Positions 12,432 to 21,440 of a stretch of DNA of 48,046 nucleotides are shown in pieces (position 1 is the stretch's first letter; each line of letters opens with the position of its first letter). The notes beneath the pieces are model-generated. The model was given only the letters and a program-made list of their open reading frames with translations. It did no database searches and was not told where the DNA came from. Origin of the DNA: Gaiellaceae bacterium. Lineage in GTDB: Bacteria > Actinomycetota > Thermoleophilia > Gaiellales > Gaiellaceae. The stretch is from assembly GCA_035535855.1 (NCBI GenBank), contig DATLPH010000002.1:1-48046 (forward strand). Reading direction: 5' to 3'. The translations under genes and the position numbers were made by a program.

Positions 12432-12459
12432 CCAAAGTTTAGTCTTGACTAAACTTTGG
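12432..12459. promoter_or_regulatory. perfect 28-bp palindromic operator candidate at the mntH promoter
   Basis: CCAAAGTTTAGTC-TT-GACTAAACTTTGG has 13-bp perfect arms and a 2-bp centre. It is AT-rich in a roughly 70% GC genome. It ends 18 bp upstream of the mntH ATG and sits immediately upstream of a TACACT -10-like box (12429-12424, minus strand). It covers the hpt stop codon. Confidence 0.6.
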
Positions 12460-12985
12460 CGAGGCGCAGGTCGGGCAGGTTTCGCCAGCGGCCGTCAACG
12501 TCGAAGCCGTAGCCGACGAAGAACTCGTCAGGCACGGTGAAGCCGACGTAGTCGACGGGCAGGTCGTCGACGAGGCGCCGGTAAGGACGGTCGAGCAGCG
12601 CCACGACGCCGAGGCTCGCCGGCTTGCGCAGGTCGAAGAGCTTGCGCAGGTAGTTGAGCGTCAGCCCGGTGTCGACGACGTCTTCGACGAGGAGGACGTC
12701 GAGCCCGGTGACGGGTATCACCGTGTCCTTCAGCAGCCGAACGCGCGAGTGGCCGCCGGTATCCGCGCCGTTGTAGCCGGCGAGCTCGACGAAGTCGATC
12801 TGATGCGAGATCGGGATGGCGCGCGAGAGGTCGGTGAGGAAGACGACGCTCGCCTTCAGCAGCGAGACGAGCAGCAGCTCCCGGCCTGCGAAGTCCGCCG
12901 CGATCTGCGCGCCGAGCTCGTCGACTCGTGTCCCCAGCTCCTCGGCGGTGAGGAAGACCTCGCCGATGCGGGGGTCGGTCCCTAT
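12449..12985 (-). CDS. hpt: hypoxanthine-guanine phosphoribosyltransferase
   Basis: The VLLVEDVVDTGLTL PRPP loop and DEFFVGYGFDVDGRWRNLP are present. The upstream in-frame sequence IGEVFLTAEELGTRVDELGAQIAADFAGRELLLVSLLKASVVFLTDL matches the Hpt N-terminal half. The open frame has no ATG, GTG or TTG before GTG 12721. The start is placed tentatively at ATA 12985-12983, which overlaps the upstream TAG as ATAG and gives 178 aa. Confidence 0.8.
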   Translation of the reverse strand: MGTDPRIGEVFLTAEELGTRVDELGAQIAADFAGRELLLVSLLKASVVFLTDLSRAIPISHQIDFVELAGYNGADTGGHSRVRLLKDTVIPVTGLDVLLVEDVVDTGLTLNYLRKLFDLRKPASLGVVALLDRPYRRLVDDLPVDYVGFTVPDEFFVGYGFDVDGRWRNLPDLRLAKV

Positions 12986-13347
12986 GACGCCAGGTCGAGC
13001 CGGTACCGCTGGGCCAGCCGCTCGATGTCGCGTTTGTAGAAAAGCTTCACGTTGACTTCGGGGTGGAGCTCACGGAGCTTGCGGAGCTTGCGGTTCTTGC
13101 GCGTCACGAGCCGCTGCTTCATGACCGTGATCTCGAGGTAGAGGTTCTGCTCGGGAAGGAAGAAATCAGGTGTGAACGCCTGGACGGTGCGGCCGTCCTC
13201 GCCCTGCTCGAGCACGAACGTGTGCGGCTCGTACTCCCAGGGGACGCGGTAGAAGTCCAGCACCTTGGCGCATTCGCGCTCGGCCTCGTTGGCGAACCGC
13301 GGCGGCTCGGCCCCGCGATATGCCTGGAAATCCGCTATTTCTCCCAC
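12982..13347 (-). CDS. conserved-looking small hypothetical protein, possible PD-(D/E)xK-like fold
   Basis: This is the real C-terminal 121 aa (GTG at 13347) of a 380-aa track ORF. The upstream part of that ORF is antisense to the DUF47 gene. The sequence is ...ECAKVLDFYRVPWEYEPHTFVL...AFTPDFFLPEQNLYLEITVMKQ.... GC3 is high. Confidence 0.65.
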   Translation of the reverse strand: MGEIADFQAYRGAEPPRFANEAERECAKVLDFYRVPWEYEPHTFVLEQGEDGRTVQAFTPDFFLPEQNLYLEITVMKQRLVTRKNRKLRKLRELHPEVNVKLFYKRDIERLAQRYRLDLAS

Positions 13348-13428
13348 CCAGCAGGCAGGGTAGCAGTGGGTGCGGACGCGGCCTCTCGCTCGAACCCTCG
13401 CCCGAACCTGATAGAAGCCGCTCGCGCG

Positions 13429-14052
13429 ATGCCCCGATTCCGGCTGACACCGCAGAAGCACGAGTTCTTCGAGCTCTACGCTCAGGCCTCGGCGAACACG
13501 ATCGAGATCGCCCGGCTGCTGGTCGAGCTGCTCAACCGCTTCCCCGAGGACGGTGACGCGCTCGTCTCCCGCATCAAGGAGCGCGAGCACGAGGGCGACC
13601 GCCTCACCCACGAGGTCGTGCTGCTCCTGAACAAGTCCTTCGTGACGCCGTTCGACCGCGACGACATGTACAGGCTCGCGAGCGCGCTCGACGACATCTG
13701 CGACCACGTCGACGAGGCGGCTGACAACCTCGGCTCGTGGGGGGTCGAGCGCGTACCGGAGAAGGCGCGGAGCCAGGCCGACGTGATCTTGCGCGCGGCG
13801 ACGAAGCTCGACGAGGCGGTGCGGCGGCTCGACGGCTTCCGCGACTCGAGCGACCAGCTCGGCGAGCTGCGGGAGCTCGAGGACGAGGGTGACACGCTCG
13901 TCCGCGATGCGGTAGCCGAGCTCTTCCGCTCGACGGACGACGCGAAGGTGATCATCCGCTGGAAAGACATCCACGAGCGGCTCGAGGAAGCGGTGGACGC
14001 GCTCGAGAACGCCGCCGACGTCCTCGAGGCGATCGTCGTGAAGAACCGCTAG
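13429..14052 (+). CDS. PhoU-like DUF47 family protein (Pit accessory protein)
   Basis: The start is ATG at 13429 (MPRFRLTPQKHEFFELY...). The helical DUF47/YkaA-like sequence includes EHEGDRLTHEV and EDEGDTLVRDA repeats. It ends 3 nt before the PiT gene, which is the classic pairing. Confidence 0.85.
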   Translation: MPRFRLTPQKHEFFELYAQASANTIEIARLLVELLNRFPEDGDALVSRIKEREHEGDRLTHEVVLLLNKSFVTPFDRDDMYRLASALDDICDHVDEAADNLGSWGVERVPEKARSQADVILRAATKLDEAVRRLDGFRDSSDQLGELRELEDEGDTLVRDAVAELFRSTDDAKVIIRWKDIHERLEEAVDALENAADVLEAIVVKNR

Positions 14053-14055
14053 GCC

Positions 14056-15045
14056 ATGGAAAACGTCCTGGTCGTGGTCGTCGTGTTGGTCGCGCTCGGC
14101 TTCGACTTCACCAACGGCTTCCACGACACGGCCAACGCCGTCGCGACCTCGATCTCGACGCGCGCCCTCTCACCGCGCCTAGCGGTGCTGATCGCGGCGA
14201 TCGCCAACCTCGCCGGCGCCTTCGTCACGACCGCGGTCGCGAAGACGGTAGGGAAGGGGATCATCGACACCGGGCTGGCGACCGAGCAGACCATCCTCGC
14301 GGCCCTGTTCGGAGCAATCGCCTGGAACCTGATCACCTGGCGGCTGGGGCTGCCGTCGAGCTCCTCGCACGCGCTCATCGGCGGGCTCGTCGGGGCAGCG
14401 CTTGCGCAGTCCGGCACCTCGGGGGTCCAGTGGCACGGGCTCGTCCACAACGTCGCGATCCCGGGTGTGGTGGCCCCCGTGATCGCGTTCGCCGGCGCCT
14501 TCGTGTTGCTGCTGCTCATCTTCTGGGCCCTGCTCCGGCTGACGCCGGGCTTCGCCAACCGCACGTTCCGGTTGGGCCAGCTCGTGTCGGGAACCTGGGT
14601 CGCGTTCACCCACGGCGCCAACGACGCGCAGAAGACGATGGGCGTGATCGCGCTCGCGCTCTTCGAGAGCGGCCACATCTCGCACTTCTACATCCCGACC
14701 TGGGTGATCGTCTCGTCCGGCCTCGCGATCGCCCTCGGCACCTACTCGGGCGGCTGGCGAATCATGCGCACTCTCGGGCAGCGGGTGATCAGCATGGAGC
14801 CGGCGAGCGGCTTCGCCGCGCAGATGACCGCGGGGGCGACGATCTACTTCGCGACCAAGCTCGGGTACCCGCTGTCCACGACGCACGTCATCTCGGGGTC
14901 GGTCCTTGGCGCCGGCGCGACGAAGCGTCTCTCGGCGGTGCGCTGGGGCGTCGCCGGAAACATCGTCGTCGCCTGGCTCTTGACGATCCCGGCCGCCGGC
15001 CTCGTTGCGGCTGCGCTGTACTGGCCCGTCCAGGCGATCTTCTAG
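14056..15045 (+). CDS. pit: inorganic phosphate transporter, PiT family
   Basis: The 329-aa ORF has the GFDFTNGFHDTANAVATSI signature, a second GANDAQKTMG signature and multiple TM helices. Confidence 0.92.
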   Translation: MENVLVVVVVLVALGFDFTNGFHDTANAVATSISTRALSPRLAVLIAAIANLAGAFVTTAVAKTVGKGIIDTGLATEQTILAALFGAIAWNLITWRLGLPSSSSHALIGGLVGAALAQSGTSGVQWHGLVHNVAIPGVVAPVIAFAGAFVLLLLIFWALLRLTPGFANRTFRLGQLVSGTWVAFTHGANDAQKTMGVIALALFESGHISHFYIPTWVIVSSGLAIALGTYSGGWRIMRTLGQRVISMEPASGFAAQMTAGATIYFATKLGYPLSTTHVISGSVLGAGATKRLSAVRWGVAGNIVVAWLLTIPAAGLVAAALYWPVQAIF

Positions 15046-15065
15046 GCCGCTCTACACTTCGGGAC

Positions 15066-15875
15066 ATGGCGCAGGGCCAGAACGGCGGGGCGTTCACGAT
15101 CGCGCAGATCTCCGACATCCATTGCGGAGGACCCGACTTCGTGCCCAACCTGATGGAGCGGGCCGTCAGCGAGATCAACGACCTCGATCCCGACCTCGTC
15201 ATCTGCTCGGGCGACCTCACGACCTTCGGCTTCAAGCACGAGTACGCGATGGCGAAGGCCTACCTCGACCGGATCAACTGCGACTCGATGGTGGTCATCC
15301 CGGGGAACCACGACTCGCGCAACGTCGGCTACGTCCACTTCGAGGACATGTTCGGCGAGCGCAACTCGGTGATGAAGCTCGGCGGCGTGACCGTGGTCGC
15401 CGTGGACTCGACGGAGCCGGACCTCGACCACGGCCAGATCGGCCGCGGGCGCTACCGCTGGATCGAGGAGCAGTTCACCGGCGACGCCGACCTGCGCATC
15501 TTCGTCCTGCACCACCACCTGCTGCCGGTCCCTGGCACGGGGCGCGAGCGCAACGTCGTCTACGACGCGGGCGACTGCATCGAGTGCCTGCAGCGAGCGG
15601 GCGTCGACCTGGTGCTCTCTGGCCACAAACACGTGCCGTACGCGTGGCGGCTCGAGAACCTGTTCGTCGTCAACGCGGGCACGGTCTCCTCGCAGCGCCT
15701 CCGCGGCAAGACGAGGCCCTGTTACAACGTGATCGAGGTCAGCGACCGCCATGTCGACGTCTGGCGCAAGTACCCGTTCCACGGGCAGGAGCGGATCATC
15801 CAGTTCTCGACGGAGACCCGCGCGTTCGAGAAGTACACGACGCGGATCGAGGACGAGGTCACGGCGAGGACCTGA
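15066..15875 (+). CDS. calcineurin-like metallophosphoesterase
   Basis: The start is ATG at 15066. Motifs are ISDIHCG, SGDLTTFG, IPGNHD, VLHHH and SGHKHV. The stop overlaps the next start as TGATG. Confidence 0.88.
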   Translation: MAQGQNGGAFTIAQISDIHCGGPDFVPNLMERAVSEINDLDPDLVICSGDLTTFGFKHEYAMAKAYLDRINCDSMVVIPGNHDSRNVGYVHFEDMFGERNSVMKLGGVTVVAVDSTEPDLDHGQIGRGRYRWIEEQFTGDADLRIFVLHHHLLPVPGTGRERNVVYDAGDCIECLQRAGVDLVLSGHKHVPYAWRLENLFVVNAGTVSSQRLRGKTRPCYNVIEVSDRHVDVWRKYPFHGQERIIQFSTETRAFEKYTTRIEDEVTART

Positions 15876-17134
15876 TGCGCGCCTTGGTGATCTCGGACGG
15901 TGAGCACTACGCGCCCGTGGTGCGGGACGCACTGGCGGCGCTGCCCTACGAGGTCGCGGCCGTGTGGCTCGCGGGTGGCACCGAGAAGCTGCGCGGCGGC
16001 GAGGACTACGGCGTGCCCGTGGTCGACGACCTCGCCGTGGCGATCTCGGAGCTCGAGCCGGAGGTCGTGGTCGACCTCTCGGACGAGCCGGTGCTGGGGC
16101 CGCGCGAGCGCTTTCGGGTCGCGAGCACGGTGCTCGCGCTGGGGCTGCCCTACGTCGGGCCCGACTTTCGCTTCGATCCGCCCGACTTCGCTCCCTTCCC
16201 GCTGCCCGCGCTCTCGGTGATCGGGACGGGCAAGCGCGTGGGGAAGACCGCCGTCACCGGGCACGTTGCCCGCCTGCTCGCCGGCGACCGCGACGTGGTC
16301 GTCGTCGCGATGGGCCGCGGCGGCCCTCCGGAGCCGGAGGTGGCCGAGGTGCAGCCGACGCTCGAGCGCCTGCTCGAGCTCTCGCGCGAGGGCCGGCACG
16401 CGGCCTCCGACTACCTCGAGACCGCTGCCCTCGCGGGCGTGGTGACGATCGGCTGCAGGCGTTGCGGAGGAGGCCTGGCCGGCTCGCCTGGGCAGTCGAA
16501 CGTGCTCGCCGGTGCCGCGCTCGCCGCGGAGCGCGAGCCAGACCTGGTGATCTTCGACGGCAGCGGCGCTGCGATCCCGCCGGTGGAGACCGGCGCGCGC
16601 GTCCTGGTCACGAGCACCGCTCAGCCTCGCGAGATCGTGACCGGCTACCTGAACGCCTACCGGATCCTCATCTCCGACCTGGTGGTCGTCACCGGCGGGC
16701 TCGACGACGAGCTCGTGCGGGCGATCCACGACGTCAAGGAGCTGCCGGTGATCGCGGTCGAGCTCAGGCCGCGGCCCGCGGTGCCCGTCCTGGGCAAGCG
16801 CGTCGCCTACTTCTCGACCGCGCCTGCACACGCGCACGAGGCGATCGAGCGGCACCTGCACGAGGAGCTCGGAGCGGAGGTGGTGCTGGTGTCGGGCAAC
16901 CTCGCCCGCCGGGACGAGCTGCGCGCGGACCTGGCCAGGGCGGACGATGCCGAGCTCTACCTGGTGGAGATCAAGGCGGCCGCGATCGACGTCGTCGCCG
17001 AGGCTGCGCTCGAGCGCGGCGTCGAGGTGGTCTTCGCCGACAACGAGCTCGTGCCGGCCGGCGTGCACGACCTCGACACCGAGCTGATCCGGCTTGCCGA
17101 CGAGGCAGTCGCTCGAGAGACGGTCGCCCGGTGA
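15875..17134 (+). CDS. cpgS: cyclic 2,3-diphosphoglycerate synthetase homologue
   Basis: The 419-aa protein carries the blocks I recall from archaeal cDPG synthetases. These are SDGEHYAPVV, GGTEKL, DLSDEPV...RFRVAS, VIGTGKRVGKTAV, VVAMGRGGPPEPE, HAASDYLE, IGCRRCGGGLAG, DGSGAAIPPV, STAP and EIKAAAIDV...VVFADN. Confidence 0.82.
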   Translation: MRALVISDGEHYAPVVRDALAALPYEVAAVWLAGGTEKLRGGEDYGVPVVDDLAVAISELEPEVVVDLSDEPVLGPRERFRVASTVLALGLPYVGPDFRFDPPDFAPFPLPALSVIGTGKRVGKTAVTGHVARLLAGDRDVVVVAMGRGGPPEPEVAEVQPTLERLLELSREGRHAASDYLETAALAGVVTIGCRRCGGGLAGSPGQSNVLAGAALAAEREPDLVIFDGSGAAIPPVETGARVLVTSTAQPREIVTGYLNAYRILISDLVVVTGGLDDELVRAIHDVKELPVIAVELRPRPAVPVLGKRVAYFSTAPAHAHEAIERHLHEELGAEVVLVSGNLARRDELRADLARADDAELYLVEIKAAAIDVVAEAALERGVEVVFADNELVPAGVHDLDTELIRLADEAVARETVAR

Positions 17135-18045
17135 CCGACCGCCGTTTCCGCCAGCCGCTGCCGCTCGGCGGCGAGGACGGGCTGCCCTTCTCGAAGGGCC
17201 TGATGGCGCGCGCGCTGATCGCGGCCGGGCTCTCGGCCGATCGCGCCTACGAGCTCTCGCTGGCGGTGGAGGCCGACATCGTGGGCAGCGGCAGGGAGTC
17301 GATCTCGCTCGAGCGTCTCGAGGAGCTCGCCGTCGAGGCCCTCGGGCCGGAGGACGGCGCGACCGCGATGCGGAGCCTGCGGCGCTACCAGGATCTGTAC
17401 GAGCTCGACTTGCCGATCATCCTGCTCGTGGGCGGCGCGACCGGCACCGGGAAGTCCACGGTCGCCACAGACGTCGCCTACCGCCTCGGGGTAACGCGCG
17501 TGACCTCGACCGACTTCGTGCGCCAGACGATGCGCGCTTTCTTCTCGCGGGAGTTCATGCCCGCGATCCATTTCTCGAGCTTCGAGGCCGGCCGCGCGAC
17601 CGCGGACGAGGACGCCGAGGGCAGCGAGGCGGTGCTGGACGGCTTCCTCGAGCAGACGCGCGACGTGCTCGTCGGCGTCCAGGCCGCGATCGACCGCGCA
17701 CTCGAGGAGGGCTGGTCGGTCGTGATCGAGGGCGTGCACCTCGTGCCCGGGATGCTCCCGCGCACGATCGAGGGCGCGCTCGTCGTGCAGTGCGTGCTCG
17801 CGATCTCCGATGCGGAGGCGCACGCGAGCCACTTCTGGATTCGAGACAACGACTCCGAAGGCGTGCGGCCCTACGAGAAGTACCTCGAGGCGTTCGACGA
17901 CATCCGGCTCGTCCAGGCGTACATCCTGGGTCGCGCGCAAAAGCACGACGTGCCGGTGATCGAGAACGGCGACATCGAGGACGCGATCGGCAAGGTGATG
18001 GAGCTCGTGCTCCAGGCCGCCGAGCCGCTGCAGGTGAGCCCGTGA
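17131..18045 (+). CDS. 2-phosphoglycerate kinase homologue (COG2074-like)
   Basis: The GTG at 17131 forms a GTGA overlap with cpgS. An N-terminal ATP-cone-like segment is followed by a P-loop (LLVGGATGTGKSTVATDVAYRLGVTRVTSTDFVRQTMR) and VIEGVHLVPG. Confidence 0.8.
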   Translation: MTDRRFRQPLPLGGEDGLPFSKGLMARALIAAGLSADRAYELSLAVEADIVGSGRESISLERLEELAVEALGPEDGATAMRSLRRYQDLYELDLPIILLVGGATGTGKSTVATDVAYRLGVTRVTSTDFVRQTMRAFFSREFMPAIHFSSFEAGRATADEDAEGSEAVLDGFLEQTRDVLVGVQAAIDRALEEGWSVVIEGVHLVPGMLPRTIEGALVVQCVLAISDAEAHASHFWIRDNDSEGVRPYEKYLEAFDDIRLVQAYILGRAQKHDVPVIENGDIEDAIGKVMELVLQAAEPLQVSP

Positions 18046-19055
18046 CCCAGACGCAGCCCGAGAAGCCGCAGGCAGGCACGGCGCCCGAGGCGCGCTTTTG
18101 CCTCTGCGAGAGCTACGCGCGGGTGACCGAGCGGTCGGCAATGGCCGGAGCGCGGTGGCTCGGCCGGGCCGACCAGGAAACCGCAGAGGAGGACGCCTCA
18201 ACCGCGATGCGCCTCGCGCTGGAGCAGCTGCCGATCGACGGGCAGATCGTGATCGGTGCGGGCGGCGAGGGCGGCCAGCTCGCAGGTGGCACGAAGGTCG
18301 GCGCCGGGGGAACGGAGGTCGATCTCGCGCTCGACCCGCTCGAAGGGCGCGGCGTCGTCGCGCGAGGCGGCTACGGGGCGATGGCCATGGTGGCGATCGG
18401 CGACCCCGGCTCGTTCCAGCGGCTTCCGGACATGTACATGCGCAAGATGGCGGTCGGGCCCAAGGCGCGAGGCGCGATCGACCTCGGCAAGCCGGTGGGC
18501 GACAATATCCGCGCGATTGCCGACGCCTTCGGGCGGATGGTCAACGACGTGACGACGATCGTGCTCGACCGGCCGCGGCACCACGACCTAATCGAGGAGA
18601 TTCGGGCCGCGGGCGCGCGCATCAAGCTGATCCAGGATGGTGACGTGACGGCCTCGATCTCGGCCGCGATCCGCGGGACGAACGACCACCTCTCGGTCGG
18701 GATCGGCGGCACGCGCCAGGCGGTGCTGACGGCCGCGGCGCTCCGCTGCCTGGGCGGCGAGCTGCAGGCGCAGCTCTGGCCGACCTCGCGCAGCGAGGTC
18801 GAGGCGGCGAAGGAGGCGGGCGTCGAGGACCTGGAGCGGCTCTTCACGATCGAGGACCTGGCACCCGGCGAGGTGATCATGGTCGCGACCGGCGTCTCGA
18901 ACGGCGACCTGCTGCGCGGCGTGCGCTTCCTTGCCGACAGCGCGCGAACGCACTCGCTCGTGATGTGCACGCGCTGCAACTGGGTCCGCTTCGTCGACGG
19001 CATCCATTTCTTCGCCCGCGAACGGCGCGAGGAAGTGCGCCTGCTCGGCTACTGA
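18042..19055 (+). CDS. glpX: class II fructose-1,6-bisphosphatase (GlpX) family protein, divergent active-site motifs
   Basis: The GTG at 18042 forms a GTGA overlap. The 337-aa protein shows strong GlpX similarity (VLDRPRHHDLIEEIRAAGARIKLIQDGDV, GIGGTRQAVLTAAALRCLGGELQAQL, ATGVSNGDLLRGV). However, VIGAGGEGGQLAGG replaces the GEGE-x-DEAPML motif, and DPLEGRG replaces DP-I/L-D/E-GT. Confidence 0.8.
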   Translation: MTQTQPEKPQAGTAPEARFCLCESYARVTERSAMAGARWLGRADQETAEEDASTAMRLALEQLPIDGQIVIGAGGEGGQLAGGTKVGAGGTEVDLALDPLEGRGVVARGGYGAMAMVAIGDPGSFQRLPDMYMRKMAVGPKARGAIDLGKPVGDNIRAIADAFGRMVNDVTTIVLDRPRHHDLIEEIRAAGARIKLIQDGDVTASISAAIRGTNDHLSVGIGGTRQAVLTAAALRCLGGELQAQLWPTSRSEVEAAKEAGVEDLERLFTIEDLAPGEVIMVATGVSNGDLLRGVRFLADSARTHSLVMCTRCNWVRFVDGIHFFARERREEVRLLGY

Positions 19056-19465
19056 TGGCGGAGGTCGTCAAGGGGAGCTGCCTCTGCGAGGGTGTGCGGT
19101 ACGAGGTCGAGCTGCCGTTCCTGCGCGCGAACCACTGTCACTGCTCGCTCTGCCGCAAGCAGTCCGGCACGTTCGGGCTCTCCCAGGGACGCGTTCCGCG
19201 CGAGCAGTTCCGCCTGCTCGAGGGCGAAGAGCTGCTGCGCGTCTACCGCCCGGAGACCGGCACGGTCGTGAAGGTCTTCTGCTCCGTGTGCGGCTCGAGC
19301 CTCTTCGGCGGTCACTGGCCCGAGGGCGACGAGGTCTCGATCCGGCTGGGCTCGCTCGACGGCGATCCCGGCATCCGGCCACAGTGGCACCAATTCGTCG
19401 ACTCGCGCGCGGTGTGGGACGAGCTCCCCGACGACGGCCTGCCGCGATACCCTGACGCTCCATGA
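19055..19465 (+). CDS. GFA (glutathione-dependent formaldehyde-activating)/CENP-V family Zn protein
   Basis: The ATG at 19055 forms a TGATG overlap. The CLCEGVRY...ANHCHCSLCRKQSG...FCSVCGS cysteine pattern is present. Confidence 0.8.
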   Translation: MAEVVKGSCLCEGVRYEVELPFLRANHCHCSLCRKQSGTFGLSQGRVPREQFRLLEGEELLRVYRPETGTVVKVFCSVCGSSLFGGHWPEGDEVSIRLGSLDGDPGIRPQWHQFVDSRAVWDELPDDGLPRYPDAP

Positions 19466-19758
19466 CACGCGATGACGTAATCGAGGCGCTCCGCTCCGTC
19501 GAGGATCCCGAGCTCGGGATGGACATCGTCGAGCTCGGCCTGGTCTACGACGCGGAGGTACAGGGTCCGAAGGTGAAGGTGATGTACAGCCTCACCTCGA
19601 TGGGCTGCCCGGCCGGTCCGCTGATCCAGCAGAACATCGAAGAGGTCGTGCGGGCCCTGCCCGAGGTCGAGGACGTCGAGACGGAGCTCACGTGGGATCC
19701 CCCGTGGACGCCGGAGAAGATGTCCGACGACGCGAAGTTCATCCTCGGCTTCGGCTAG
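19462..19758 (+). CDS. DUF59/SufT-like metal-sulfur cluster assembly factor
   Basis: The 98-aa ORF has an ATGA overlap. Motifs are VEDPELGMDIVELGLVY and LTSMGCPAGP. Confidence 0.85.
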   Translation: MTRDDVIEALRSVEDPELGMDIVELGLVYDAEVQGPKVKVMYSLTSMGCPAGPLIQQNIEEVVRALPEVEDVETELTWDPPWTPEKMSDDAKFILGFG

Positions 19759-20210
19759 TGCTGCGCGACGTCGTCGCGTCCGACCTCGAAGTCTTCTACG
19801 AGCACCAGCTCGATCCCGAGGCGACCGCGATGGCGCTCTTTCCCGCGCGCGACCGCGACGCTTTCGATGCGCACTGGCAGCGGGTGCTCGCCGACGACGC
19901 GGCCATCAAGAAGACGATCGAGCACGATGGCCGCGTCGTCGGGAATGTCCTCTCGTGGCGGCAAGACGGGCGCCAGCTCGTCGGCTACTGGGTCGGCCGC
20001 GAGTTCTGGGGCCAGGGCCTGGCGACGGCCGCGCTGGCGGAGCTGACGGAGGAGCTGACTACCCGCCCGCTGTACGCGTGGGTGGCGCGCAGCAACCCCG
20101 CGTCGATCCGCGTGCTCGAGAAGTGTGGCTTCGTCGAGGTGGATTCGCGCGCGGAGCACGACGAGCGTCTGGGCGTCGTCGTCGAGGAGGTCCTGCTCGA
20201 GCTCGAGTGA
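19758..20210 (+). CDS. GNAT-family N-acetyltransferase
   Basis: The GTG at 19758 forms a TAGTG overlap. The YWVGREFWGQGLATAALAEL acetyl-CoA-binding motif and NPASIRVLEKCGF are present. Confidence 0.8.
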   Translation: MLRDVVASDLEVFYEHQLDPEATAMALFPARDRDAFDAHWQRVLADDAAIKKTIEHDGRVVGNVLSWRQDGRQLVGYWVGREFWGQGLATAALAELTEELTTRPLYAWVARSNPASIRVLEKCGFVEVDSRAEHDERLGVVVEEVLLELE

Positions 20211-20241
20211 GCGGGCGTTGGCCGGAGGCGGCGAACGTGGT

Positions 20242-20478
20242 ATGACCCGCGTGATGACATTTTTCGCTCGGCTGTTCGGCTGGCTCAGGCGCACGCCTCA
20301 GCAGCCGGTGCTGGGCGAGGAGGACGCCTACAAGCGCTGCCACGGCGAGCGCGTGACTGAGATCGTCGTGATCCCGGTGCCGCCGCCCATGCCGAGGGTG
20401 CTGCCGAAGCTGCGGGGTGACTACCTGCAGCGCTGCTTCGAGGAGCGTCTCGAAGCCCGTCGCGCGCTGCACCACTAG
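20242..20478 (+). CDS. hypothetical small protein (78 aa)
   Basis: It has an ATG start and high GC3. I recognise no family. The ORF-track N-terminal extension overlaps the GNAT gene and looks spurious. Confidence 0.5.
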   Translation: MTRVMTFFARLFGWLRRTPQQPVLGEEDAYKRCHGERVTEIVVIPVPPPMPRVLPKLRGDYLQRCFEERLEARRALHH

Positions 20479-20480
20479 CC

Positions 20481-21440
20481 CTACGGGATCGAGAGCACGA
20501 TCTTGCCGAACTGCTCTCCGGCTTCCATCCGCTCGTGCGCGGCGCGGGCCTCCTCCAGCGGGTAGACCGAGTCCACCACCGGCTTCGCGCGGCCGCTCTT
20601 GACCAGCTCGTAGGCAGCCTCGAAGTCCTCTCGCGTGCCCATCGTCGAGCCGAGGATCGACAGCTGCTTCCACCAGATGCGATGCAGCGCCGCGGGCGGG
20701 TTCGGTCCGGAGGTCGCGCCGCAGACGGCGATGCGCCCGCCCGAGCGCGCCGCCTGGATCGAGGTCTGCCAGGTCGCCTCGCCGACGTGCTCGAGCACCA
20801 CCTCGACACCGGCGCCGCCGGTGGCCTCCTTCACGGCCTCGCGCACCTCGCCCGTCGCGTGGTTCACCGTCGCGTCCGCGCCGAGCGCCGTCGCCCGCTC
20901 GAGCTTCTCGTCGCTCGAGGAGGTGACGAGCGCCTTCGCCCCGAGCGCCTTCGCGATCGCCAGGCCGGCGGTGGCTACGCCGCTGCCGATCCCCCAGAGC
21001 AGGACCCACTCGCCCTCGCGCAGCCGGGCGCGGGTGACCAGCAGGCGGTACGCGGTCTCGAAGACGAGCGGGAACGCCGCCGCGTCCTCGAACGAGATCT
21101 CGTCCGGAAGCGGGTAGACGTTCGTCTCCGGGACTGCGACGAGCTCCGCGTGCGTGCCGTCCATGTGCTCGCCGACGACGCTGATCTGTTCGCCGTGCTC
21201 GATGCCCGGGTTGATCACGACACGCTCGCCGGTGTCCTCCCGGATGCCTGCCCCGTCCGCGCCGAGGATCCGCGGCTTGGGCACCGAAGGAAGGCCCTTG
21301 CGGACCCAGAGGTCGAGGTGATTGAGCGAGGCGGCGCGCAGACGGACGAGCACCTCACCCGGGCCGGGCTCGGGATCGGGAGCGTCCTCGTAGCGCAGAA
21401 CATCGGGCCCGCCGTCCTCGTGGATCCGAATTGCCTTCAT
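20481..21440 (-). CDS. zinc-type alcohol dehydrogenase/quinone oxidoreductase (MDR superfamily)
   Basis: The real start is MKAIRIHEDGGPDVLRYED (ATG at 21440), giving 319 aa. The track's 131-aa N-terminal extension is antisense to queG. Confidence 0.88.
   Translation of the reverse strand: MKAIRIHEDGGPDVLRYEDAPDPEPGPGEVLVRLRAASLNHLDLWVRKGLPSVPKPRILGADGAGIREDTGERVVINPGIEHGEQISVVGEHMDGTHAELVAVPETNVYPLPDEISFEDAAAFPLVFETAYRLLVTRARLREGEWVLLWGIGSGVATAGLAIAKALGAKALVTSSSDEKLERATALGADATVNHATGEVREAVKEATGGAGVEVVLEHVGEATWQTSIQAARSGGRIAVCGATSGPNPPAALHRIWWKQLSILGSTMGTREDFEAAYELVKSGRAKPVVDSVYPLEEARAAHERMEAGEQFGKIVLSIP

Follow-up and report, generated by a model that had tools for sequence, protein, structure and literature searches.

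A metallophosphoesterase-cpgS-2PGK gene core in Gaiellales as a candidate bacterial system for synthesis and hydrolysis of cyclic 2,3-diphosphoglycerate

In the view that prevails in textbooks and recent papers, cyclic 2,3-diphosphoglycerate (cDPG) is a thermoprotectant of hyperthermophilic methanogens alone. The cyclisation chemistry has been demonstrated for the cDPG synthetase (cDPGS), or cpgS product, of Methanothermus fervidus (PMC10690619), and in M. thermautotrophicus cDPG is described as a store of carbon and phosphate, which is degraded by a hydrolase inhibited by K+ and inorganic phosphate (Pi) (PMC1224877). In Methanothermobacter and M. fervidus, a RimB-like gene follows cpgS and genes for neither 2-phosphoglycerate kinase (2PGK) nor metallophosphoesterase (MPE) are found nearby. 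In the Thermococcales pair (P. yayanosii PYCH_14390-400; PDB 9SXB), 2PGK stands directly after cpgS, as it does in the locus described here, a string of nine genes in a Gaiellaceae bacterium. The stretch of DNA analysed, hereafter the window, comprises 48,046 nucleotides of a contig from this mesophilic soil host, and the conserved functional unit within the nine-gene string is MPE-cpgS-2PGK (15066-18045). From the order of its genes, their homology, their conserved linkage across phyla and the conservation of catalytic and substrate-binding residues, we infer that this core probably encodes a cDPG synthesis-and-hydrolysis cycle, with predicted enzymatic activities, esterase substrate, single transcript and physiological role.

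The 419-aa product of the cpgS homologue (15875-17134, + strand) belongs to the cDPG synthetase family, as the initial annotation had proposed. It matches M. fervidus cDPGS (PDB 8ORK/8ORU) with a phmmer E-value of 2.1e-79 and 41% identity, query residues 4-408 (405 residues) aligning to chain residues 8-449 across both domains, and it matches the Thermococcus-type cDPGS structure PDB 9SXB with an E-value of 6e-79. Pfam PF27272 (CpgS_N) is recorded, as a precomputed match, for the identical public protein and for every listed homologue. The local Pfam and NCBIfam collections contain no cpgS model, and family membership is assigned because of the PDB matches together with the precomputed PF27272 matches. 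Every one of the cDPG synthetase blocks listed in the initial annotation is present and aligned to an identical M. fervidus block, and the Walker A loop reads GTGKRVGKT. In the M. fervidus enzyme, 2,3-diphosphoglycerate (2,3-DPG) is bound by E45 (in trans), K145 and R146, Mg2+ is bound by T150 and D208, K149 and K406 act as charge shields, and the nucleotide contacts include T353 and E404 (PMC10690619). E45, K46, K145, R146, K149, T150, D208, T353, E404 and K406 (M. fervidus numbering) are all identical in the window protein, in which E45, K145, R146, K149, T150, D208 and K406 correspond to E37, K120, R121, K124, T125, D179 and K367, respectively. The sole differing ligand is the nucleotide-contacting E305, which is replaced by Leu, in a comparison that covered the ligands other than P335, whose numbering could not be aligned. 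In an alignment of 25 diverse homologues, the same ligand positions show complete conservation or conservation of at least 90%. Judged by these residues and matches, the cpgS product is a homologue of true cDPGS and probably falls on the cDPGS side of its superfamily.

The 304-aa protein encoded by the next gene (17131-18045, + strand) matches the 2PGK family over its full length, again as first proposed. NCBIfam PRK04220 (2-phosphoglycerate kinase) aligns with an E-value of 5e-79, residues 17-296 falling on positions 14-291 of the 306-position model, and its score of 265.8 bits lies below the NCBI equivalog cut-off of 343; therefore, the protein is filed here as a 2PGK-family protein and not as a proven 2PGK. 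This model and PRK12337 (266.2 bits) are the two top-scoring ones and are both named 2-phosphoglycerate kinase. A model for mevalonate-3-phosphate 5-kinase reaches 79.8 bits, less than a third of the 2PGK score. The sequence contains the P-loop GGATGTGKST, and an ATP-cone match is weak (E 9e-4). A PDB search with the window protein returned no 2PGK structure. A 2005 paper had already pointed out COG2074 genes in the bacteria Thermus and Deinococcus (PMC1274311).

The gene immediately upstream of cpgS (15066-15875, + strand) encodes the MPE, which matches PF00149 (Metallophos) with an E-value of 2.7e-20 and 74.1 bits against a gathering score of 21.5. All of its metal motifs, DxH (DIH), GD, GNHD, HHH and GHKH, are intact and conserved in orthologues, and the protein is likely to be active as an enzyme. 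Its mean identity to the window across diverse loci is 52%, compared with 45% for cpgS and 40% for 2PGK, and MPE is thus the best-conserved member of the triad, which the initial annotation had listed but not singled out. The closest solved structures, the glycerophosphodiesterase GpdQ (PDB 2ZO9) and Rv0805/Icc (PDB 2HY1, 3IB7), share its fold family and binuclear-metal motifs. Unlike them, the window MPE family, which is only weakly similar (E ~5e-8), carries a conserved HHHLLPVPGTGRERN loop of its own and is strictly associated with cpgS-2PGK in genomes. This linkage makes the MPE a candidate hydrolase of cDPG or 2,3-DPG. To our knowledge, the gene for the cDPG-degrading hydrolase has never been identified.

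The constancy of the core was examined by comparing the products of the nine window genes with 80 genome loci of Gaiellales, and 80 diverse metagenome loci were scanned as well (160 in total). MPE lies immediately upstream of cpgS in every Gaiellales locus (80/80), and 2PGK lies immediately downstream in all 78 that extend far enough (78/78), while the flanks vary. GlpX follows 2PGK in 62/76 loci, and in 14 loci GlpX is absent and DUF59 comes directly after 2PGK. PiT adjoins MPE in 7/75, DUF47 is found upstream of MPE in 8/80, GFA occurs downstream in 7/80 and GNAT is present in 5/80. GFA and GNAT are lineage-specific passengers. DUF59 occurs within 4.5 kb downstream of 2PGK in 72/80 Gaiellales loci with variable spacing and has no match in the 80 diverse loci; its position is conserved in Gaiellales only.

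The initial annotation had also coupled the cluster to phosphate uptake as a hard-wired feature, and this part did not survive the comparison, since PiT is adjacent in the 7 of 75 Gaiellales loci just mentioned and neither PiT nor DUF47 occurs in any of the 80 diverse loci. The Gaiellales loci without PiT carry, upstream of MPE, the same divergent small gene, hpt and NRAMP gene as the window; therefore, DUF47-PiT is an insertion in the window's sublineage, recent, lineage-specific and outside the conserved core. DUF47 (PhoU_div) is the usual regulatory partner of PiT. The window pair has the same families in the same order as other DUF47-PiT pairs, both above the Pfam gathering score. What sets it apart from them is its insertion immediately in front of the cDPG core, which is confined to a single Gaiellaceae sublineage. 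With the NCBIfam PitA exception model, the window PiT scores 144.7 against a cut-off of 800, so that this transporter is not an E. coli-type PitA.

GlpX (18042-19055, + strand; FBPase_glpX E 7e-105) scores 278.3 bits with TIGR00330, above the cut-off of 259.3, and its closest structure is GlpX of M. tuberculosis (PDB 6AYU, E 4.7e-69). It is probably an ordinary gluconeogenic class II fructose-1,6-bisphosphatase (FBPase) that is co-transcribed with the core. The initial annotation had counted it as one of two phosphatase-type enzymes tied to the pathway; it is an orthodox FBPase, is missing from this position in 14 Gaiellales loci and gives way to a transaldolase in other lineages. Of the arrangement Pit-MPE-cpgS-2PGK-glpX, for which a survey of bacterial gene neighbourhoods had been proposed, MPE-cpgS-2PGK recurs, and PiT and GlpX are variable.

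Outside Gaiellales, 2PGK adjoins cpgS on its downstream side in 36 of the 80 diverse metagenome loci, including a Thermococcus locus, and 28 of these 36 pairs are accompanied by an MPE orthologue. The order MPE-cpgS-2PGK-transaldolase is found in an unassigned bacterial contig and in a non-Gaiellales Actinomycetota metagenome-assembled genome (MAG), cpgS-2PGK-CBS-tandem MPE in a Cloacimonadota MAG, apgM-cpgS-2PGK in another unassigned bacterial contig, which encodes Rho, cpgS-iPGM in a Bipolaricaulota contig, and cpgS-2PGK in a Thermococcus contig. Over the diverse loci as a whole, the slot after 2PGK is taken by TAL_FSA in 20 and by GlpX in 4; a CBS gene with a tandem MPE follows 2PGK in 6; apgM lies upstream in 6; iPGM comes directly after cpgS in 5; and 14 of the 80 are methanogen-type loci with the RimB-like gene.

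This distribution bears on the explanation that the string is no single system at all, its packing being typical of a streamlined high-G+C genome with unrelated housekeeping genes and the MPE adjacency being inherited synteny. The passenger genes GFA, GNAT and DUF47-PiT clearly vary between loci, GlpX is an orthodox FBPase and the DUF59 linkage is limited to Gaiellales, all of which would suit such an explanation, as would the scans reported below, which gave no promoter, terminator or RNA element defining a transcript. However, the linkage of MPE, cpgS and 2PGK is complete in Gaiellales (80/80 and 78/78) while the flanks vary, and it persists at 40-50% protein identity in other Actinomycetota. 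Moreover, the linkage recurs in a different gene order in Cloacimonadota-type loci, and inherited synteny therefore does not explain it. A mere gathering of unrelated genes is, in our estimation, very improbable.

Several of these loci have features of their own. In the slot after 2PGK, GlpX (window 18042-19055) or a small TAL_FSA transaldolase/fructose-6-phosphate aldolase (L088 8325-8972) is encountered, two different sugar-phosphate enzymes. In Bipolaricaulota-type loci (L087 6001-8908; L098, L129, L140, L146, L156), a cofactor-independent phosphoglycerate mutase gene stands directly after cpgS and no recognisable 2PGK is adjacent. In Cloacimonadota-type loci (L090 7733-9232; L134, L144, L145, L150, L167), the cpgS-linked esterase is a tandem fusion, always preceded by a small CBS-domain gene; the metal motifs are all kept in its N-terminal half and lost from its C-terminal half, which is likely to be a pseudo-enzyme domain. 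In Methanobacteriales (L085 7405-7935; L086 5914-6492; 14 metagenome loci, for example L100 and L130), the RimB-like gene that follows cpgS consistently is a PF05618 member. The cpgS-2PGK pair of the Thermococcus contig (L092 3467-7171) is located ~400 bp downstream of a gene for a mannosylglycerate-synthase-type glycosyltransferase (PF21969), and its surroundings may be a compatible-solute gene neighbourhood.

In the cycle proposed for the core, the 2PGK homologue would phosphorylate 2-phosphoglycerate (2-PG) with ATP to yield 2,3-DPG, and the CpgS homologue would use a second ATP to close the intramolecular phosphoanhydride, producing cDPG, ADP and Pi. The soluble MPE, if co-transcribed, would provide the return path, either from cDPG to 2,3-DPG or from 2,3-DPG to monophosphoglycerate. 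The cluster would thereby operate as a make-and-break cycle for a small reserve rich in phosphorus, carbon and energy, or for an anionic solute, and inhibition of the hydrolase by Pi and K+ would avert a futile cycle under co-expression. GlpX, or the transaldolase in other lineages, may couple expression to gluconeogenic flux, the source of 2-PG. The phosphoglycerate mutases (iPGM, apgM) whose genes recur beside cpgS in other lineages would fit 2-PG supply, and this recurrence indicates phosphoglycerate chemistry. The DUF47-PiT importer, inserted ahead of the core in the window's sublineage only, would fit a phosphate-reserve role there.

Compared with the cDPG pathway of Methanothermus fervidus and Methanothermobacter, the window has homologues of both enzymes and a full-length cpgS product with CpgS_N, Walker A and ligands. 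It differs in that the host is a mesophilic soil bacterium and no thermophilic methanogen and the predicted system is an overlapping-gene cluster with MPE, whereas in Methanobacteriales cpgS is apart from 2PGK and is followed by the RimB-like gene. The Thermococcales pair, alike in its gene order, is archaeal and stands, in the locus examined, without an MPE partner and next to the glycosyltransferase gene of the mannosylglycerate-synthase type. A more remote analogy is offered by ppk-ppx of E. coli, in which polyphosphate kinase and exopolyphosphatase are encoded in one transcription unit. The Gaiellaceae cluster would likewise encode together the enzymes that build up and break down a phosphate-rich reserve, but the protein families are unrelated, and the reserve would be a small cyclic pyrophosphate here and is a polymer there.

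Several points weigh against such a cycle, and the first group of them concerns the substrates. ArcE (TK2200), widespread in bacteria and historically annotated as a GTPase, is a distant branch of the cpgS superfamily with low similarity to cDPGS, and it is an arginine synthetase with a very different reaction (PMC11032458). Since the ArcE reaction differs, homology alone leaves the cpgS substrate unfixed. Likewise, the 2PGK family includes kinases with other substrates, such as mevalonate-3-phosphate 5-kinase, and the window homologue is under the equivalog cut-off. The family also includes the plant LPA1 protein, which is linked to phytate. The bacterial homologues of cpgS and 2PGK might then use other substrates and yield a product other than cDPG, through another vicinal bisphosphate, acyl-phosphate ligation or the ATP-forming direction as in ArcE, and the Leu at the nucleotide-contacting E305 could be read in the same sense. 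Nevertheless, the window cpgS product is 41% identical to a characterised cDPGS over both domains, whereas the similarity between ArcE and cDPGS is reported to be low (PMC11032458), and all the named 2,3-DPG contacts are conserved both in the window and family-wide. ArcE and the window protein share the same P-loop superfamily only distantly; in the latter the 2,3-DPG ligands are retained, and its gene is paired with that for 2PGK, not with arcB/arcC, no arc genes being found nearby. The PDB search returned cDPGS entries only, and these indirect indications speak against the window protein being an ArcE. Phosphoglycerate mutase genes recur beside cpgS, and the 2PGK match exceeds that to the mevalonate-3-phosphate kinase model more than threefold. 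We regard a product other than cDPG as rather improbable.

The remaining points against the cDPG cycle concern the esterase, the transcript and the organisms. The match of MPE to GpdQ and Rv0805/Icc is weak, and its substrate is purely inferred. The archaeal cDPG hydrolase is described as membrane-bound (PMC1224877), whereas the window MPE looks soluble, with no obvious membrane segment, and Methanobacteriales, the sole proven cDPG makers, have no cpgS-MPE linkage. No promoter was detected in a scan of 12900-20600, in which terminator-like sites were at background level, and Rfam and tRNA scans of the whole window gave no match and hence no RNA element to define a transcript. The link to a phosphate transporter, which is the chief hint that the compound serves as a phosphate reserve, is found in a small sublineage only. 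Finally, cDPG is described as exclusive to hyperthermophilic methanogens (PMC10690619) or as found in certain hyperthermophilic methanogens (PMC12136491), and the statement of the initial annotation that it is known chemically from methanogenic archaea only is still that of the literature searched (PMC10690619; PMC12136491).

Even with cDPG as the product, its purpose might be another one: 2PGK and CpgS could make it chiefly as a compatible solute, an anion balanced by K+, against osmotic stress, desiccation or heat, the esterase clearing it after the stress and the PiT neighbour being incidental. In archaea, cDPG is regarded as both an extremolyte and an osmolyte (PMC10690619; PMC1224877), the Thermococcus pair adjoins another solute gene, that for the mannosylglycerate-synthase-type glycosyltransferase, most loci are without DUF47-PiT, and Gaiellales live in soil, where desiccation is common. 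However, the genome paper of Gaiella occulta lists trehalose genes only among solute pathways (PMC6741124), two ATP and two phosphates per molecule would be costly in phosphate-poor soils, and universal co-transcription with a hydrolase would suit a pool in turnover no less well than a static solute. A role chiefly as a stress solute is thus unlikely, less so than the two explanations considered above, and a synthesis-and-hydrolysis cycle is still the preferred reading of the core.

All nine genes lie on the + strand, at 13429-20210, and translation reproduced every open reading frame and junction of this near-spacerless string; the earlier domain calls (DUF47, PiT, MPE, GlpX, GFA, DUF59 and GNAT) were likewise upheld by Pfam and NCBIfam, and the host of the cluster is indeed a bacterium (Gaiellaceae). 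The first gene encodes DUF47/PhoU_div (13429-14052, + strand; Pfam PF01865, E 1.9e-24, 86.7 bits), whose start is GTG at 13366 in public gene calls and ATG at 13429 here. After a 3-nt gap it is followed by the PiT phosphate transporter gene (14056-15045, + strand; PF01384 PHO4, E 6.8e-95, 318.4 bits), which is separated from MPE by 20 nt. Within and after the core, the junctions are TGATG between MPE and cpgS, GTGA between cpgS and 2PGK, GTGA between 2PGK and GlpX, and TGATG between GlpX and the gene for a GFA/CENP-V-type zinc protein (19055-19465, + strand; PF04828, E 1e-24). ATGA joins the latter to the gene for a DUF59/SufT-like Fe-S assembly protein (19462-19758, + strand; PF01883 FeS_assembly_P, E 6e-21), and TAGTG joins this to the last gene in the string, which encodes a GNAT acetyltransferase (19758-20210, + strand; PF13302 Acetyltransf_3, E 5.8e-17). 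The start/stop codon overlaps at cpgS/2PGK and 2PGK/GlpX, and that of one base at MPE/cpgS, are likely compatible with co-translation. The G+C content of the string is 0.67-0.72, no different from the rest of the window (~70% throughout), and the identical locus is present in several soil metagenome assemblies. The string is bordered upstream by the divergent small conserved gene, hpt and the NRAMP gene, and downstream by a convergent gene of the alcohol-dehydrogenase type (ADH-type) after GNAT.

Just upstream of the DUF47 start, there is a 12-bp tandem duplication at 13385-13408 (CTCGCTCGAACC / CTCGCCCGAACC). It was considered as a PHO box or response-regulator site and rejected, being absent from all relatives with DUF47-PiT; because relatives of the same gene order lack it, the repeat is a local duplication and no conserved operator. 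The small conserved protein encoded at 12982-13347 (- strand; ...FANEAERECAKVLDFYRVPWEYEPHTF...QRYRLDLAS) has no Pfam family on record, and its gene, divergent to the operon, lies directly upstream of hpt in most Gaiellales loci. The hpt frame (hypoxanthine phosphoribosyltransferase; 12449-12985, - strand) is intact over ~180 codons and contains no ATG, GTG or TTG before codon 117, and in public gene calls hpt is cut down to 90 aa. At 12985-12983, an ATA runs into the TAG stop of the small gene upstream to give ATAG (junction 12982-12985), and this junction occurs in 8/15 Gaiellales relatives, one relative having a normal ATG there. The ATAG junction may be a non-canonical, translationally coupled start.

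The nearest homologues of the window cpgS are in Gaiellaceae and Gaiellales MAGs (Thermoleophilia, Actinomycetota). An exhaustive representative search gave 285 clusters (50% identity) with E <1e-30, whose named members include Bipolaricaulota, Cloacimonadota, other Actinomycetota, Thermococcus and many Methanobacteriales, mesophilic genera among them. In species-representative genomes, a cpgS relative is encoded in at least 556 stretches, the best 80 of which all come from MAGs of Gaiellales, Thermoleophilia or Actinomycetota. A tree of 75 cpgS homologues built by neighbour joining is star-like and mostly unlabelled, and the direction of archaea-bacteria transfer is not resolvable from it. 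Gaiella occulta was not among the named matches of a separate homologue search, which was seeded with a Gaiella sp. MAG protein and in which few matches carry names, and the genome paper of this species does not mention these genes (PMC6741124).

The labelling of the bacterial proteins as cDPG synthetase is not new: JGI and NCBI already name bacterial homologues cyclic 2,3-diphosphoglycerate synthase or synthetase, and the enzymes are new members of known families already named by pipeline annotation. In the literature searched, where phrase queries were hampered by the comma in '2,3-', we found neither a bacterial cDPG pathway, nor its near-universal presence in Gaiellales, nor the conserved esterase partner. 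The gene content suggests that common soil bacteria, too, make and recycle cDPG, a compound supposedly confined to archaea. A wider proposal, which we advance tentatively as a possibility with the balance tilted against it, is that Gaiellales and other bacterial lineages (deep-branching Actinomycetota, Cloacimonadota-type) synthesise cDPG and turn it over via a dedicated MPE, which would be the missing cDPG hydrolase, and that mesophilic bacteria would widely use cDPG as a small-molecule store of phosphate and energy, or as a solute, with a function like that of polyphosphate and a bearing on phosphorus cycling in soil.

Current work on cDPG production uses archaeal enzymes (PMC12136491), and the bacterial operon would be a source of mesophilic enzymes for its biotechnological production. 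With the universally linked MPE, there is a concrete candidate for the enzyme that degrades cDPG. Among soil Actinomycetota, Gaiellales rank with the most common. If these abundant mesophilic soil bacteria do make cDPG, it would serve as a reserve of phosphate, carbon and energy or as an anionic solute in general, and not as a heat shield, and it would constitute an unrecognised organic phosphorus pool in soil phosphorus cycling.

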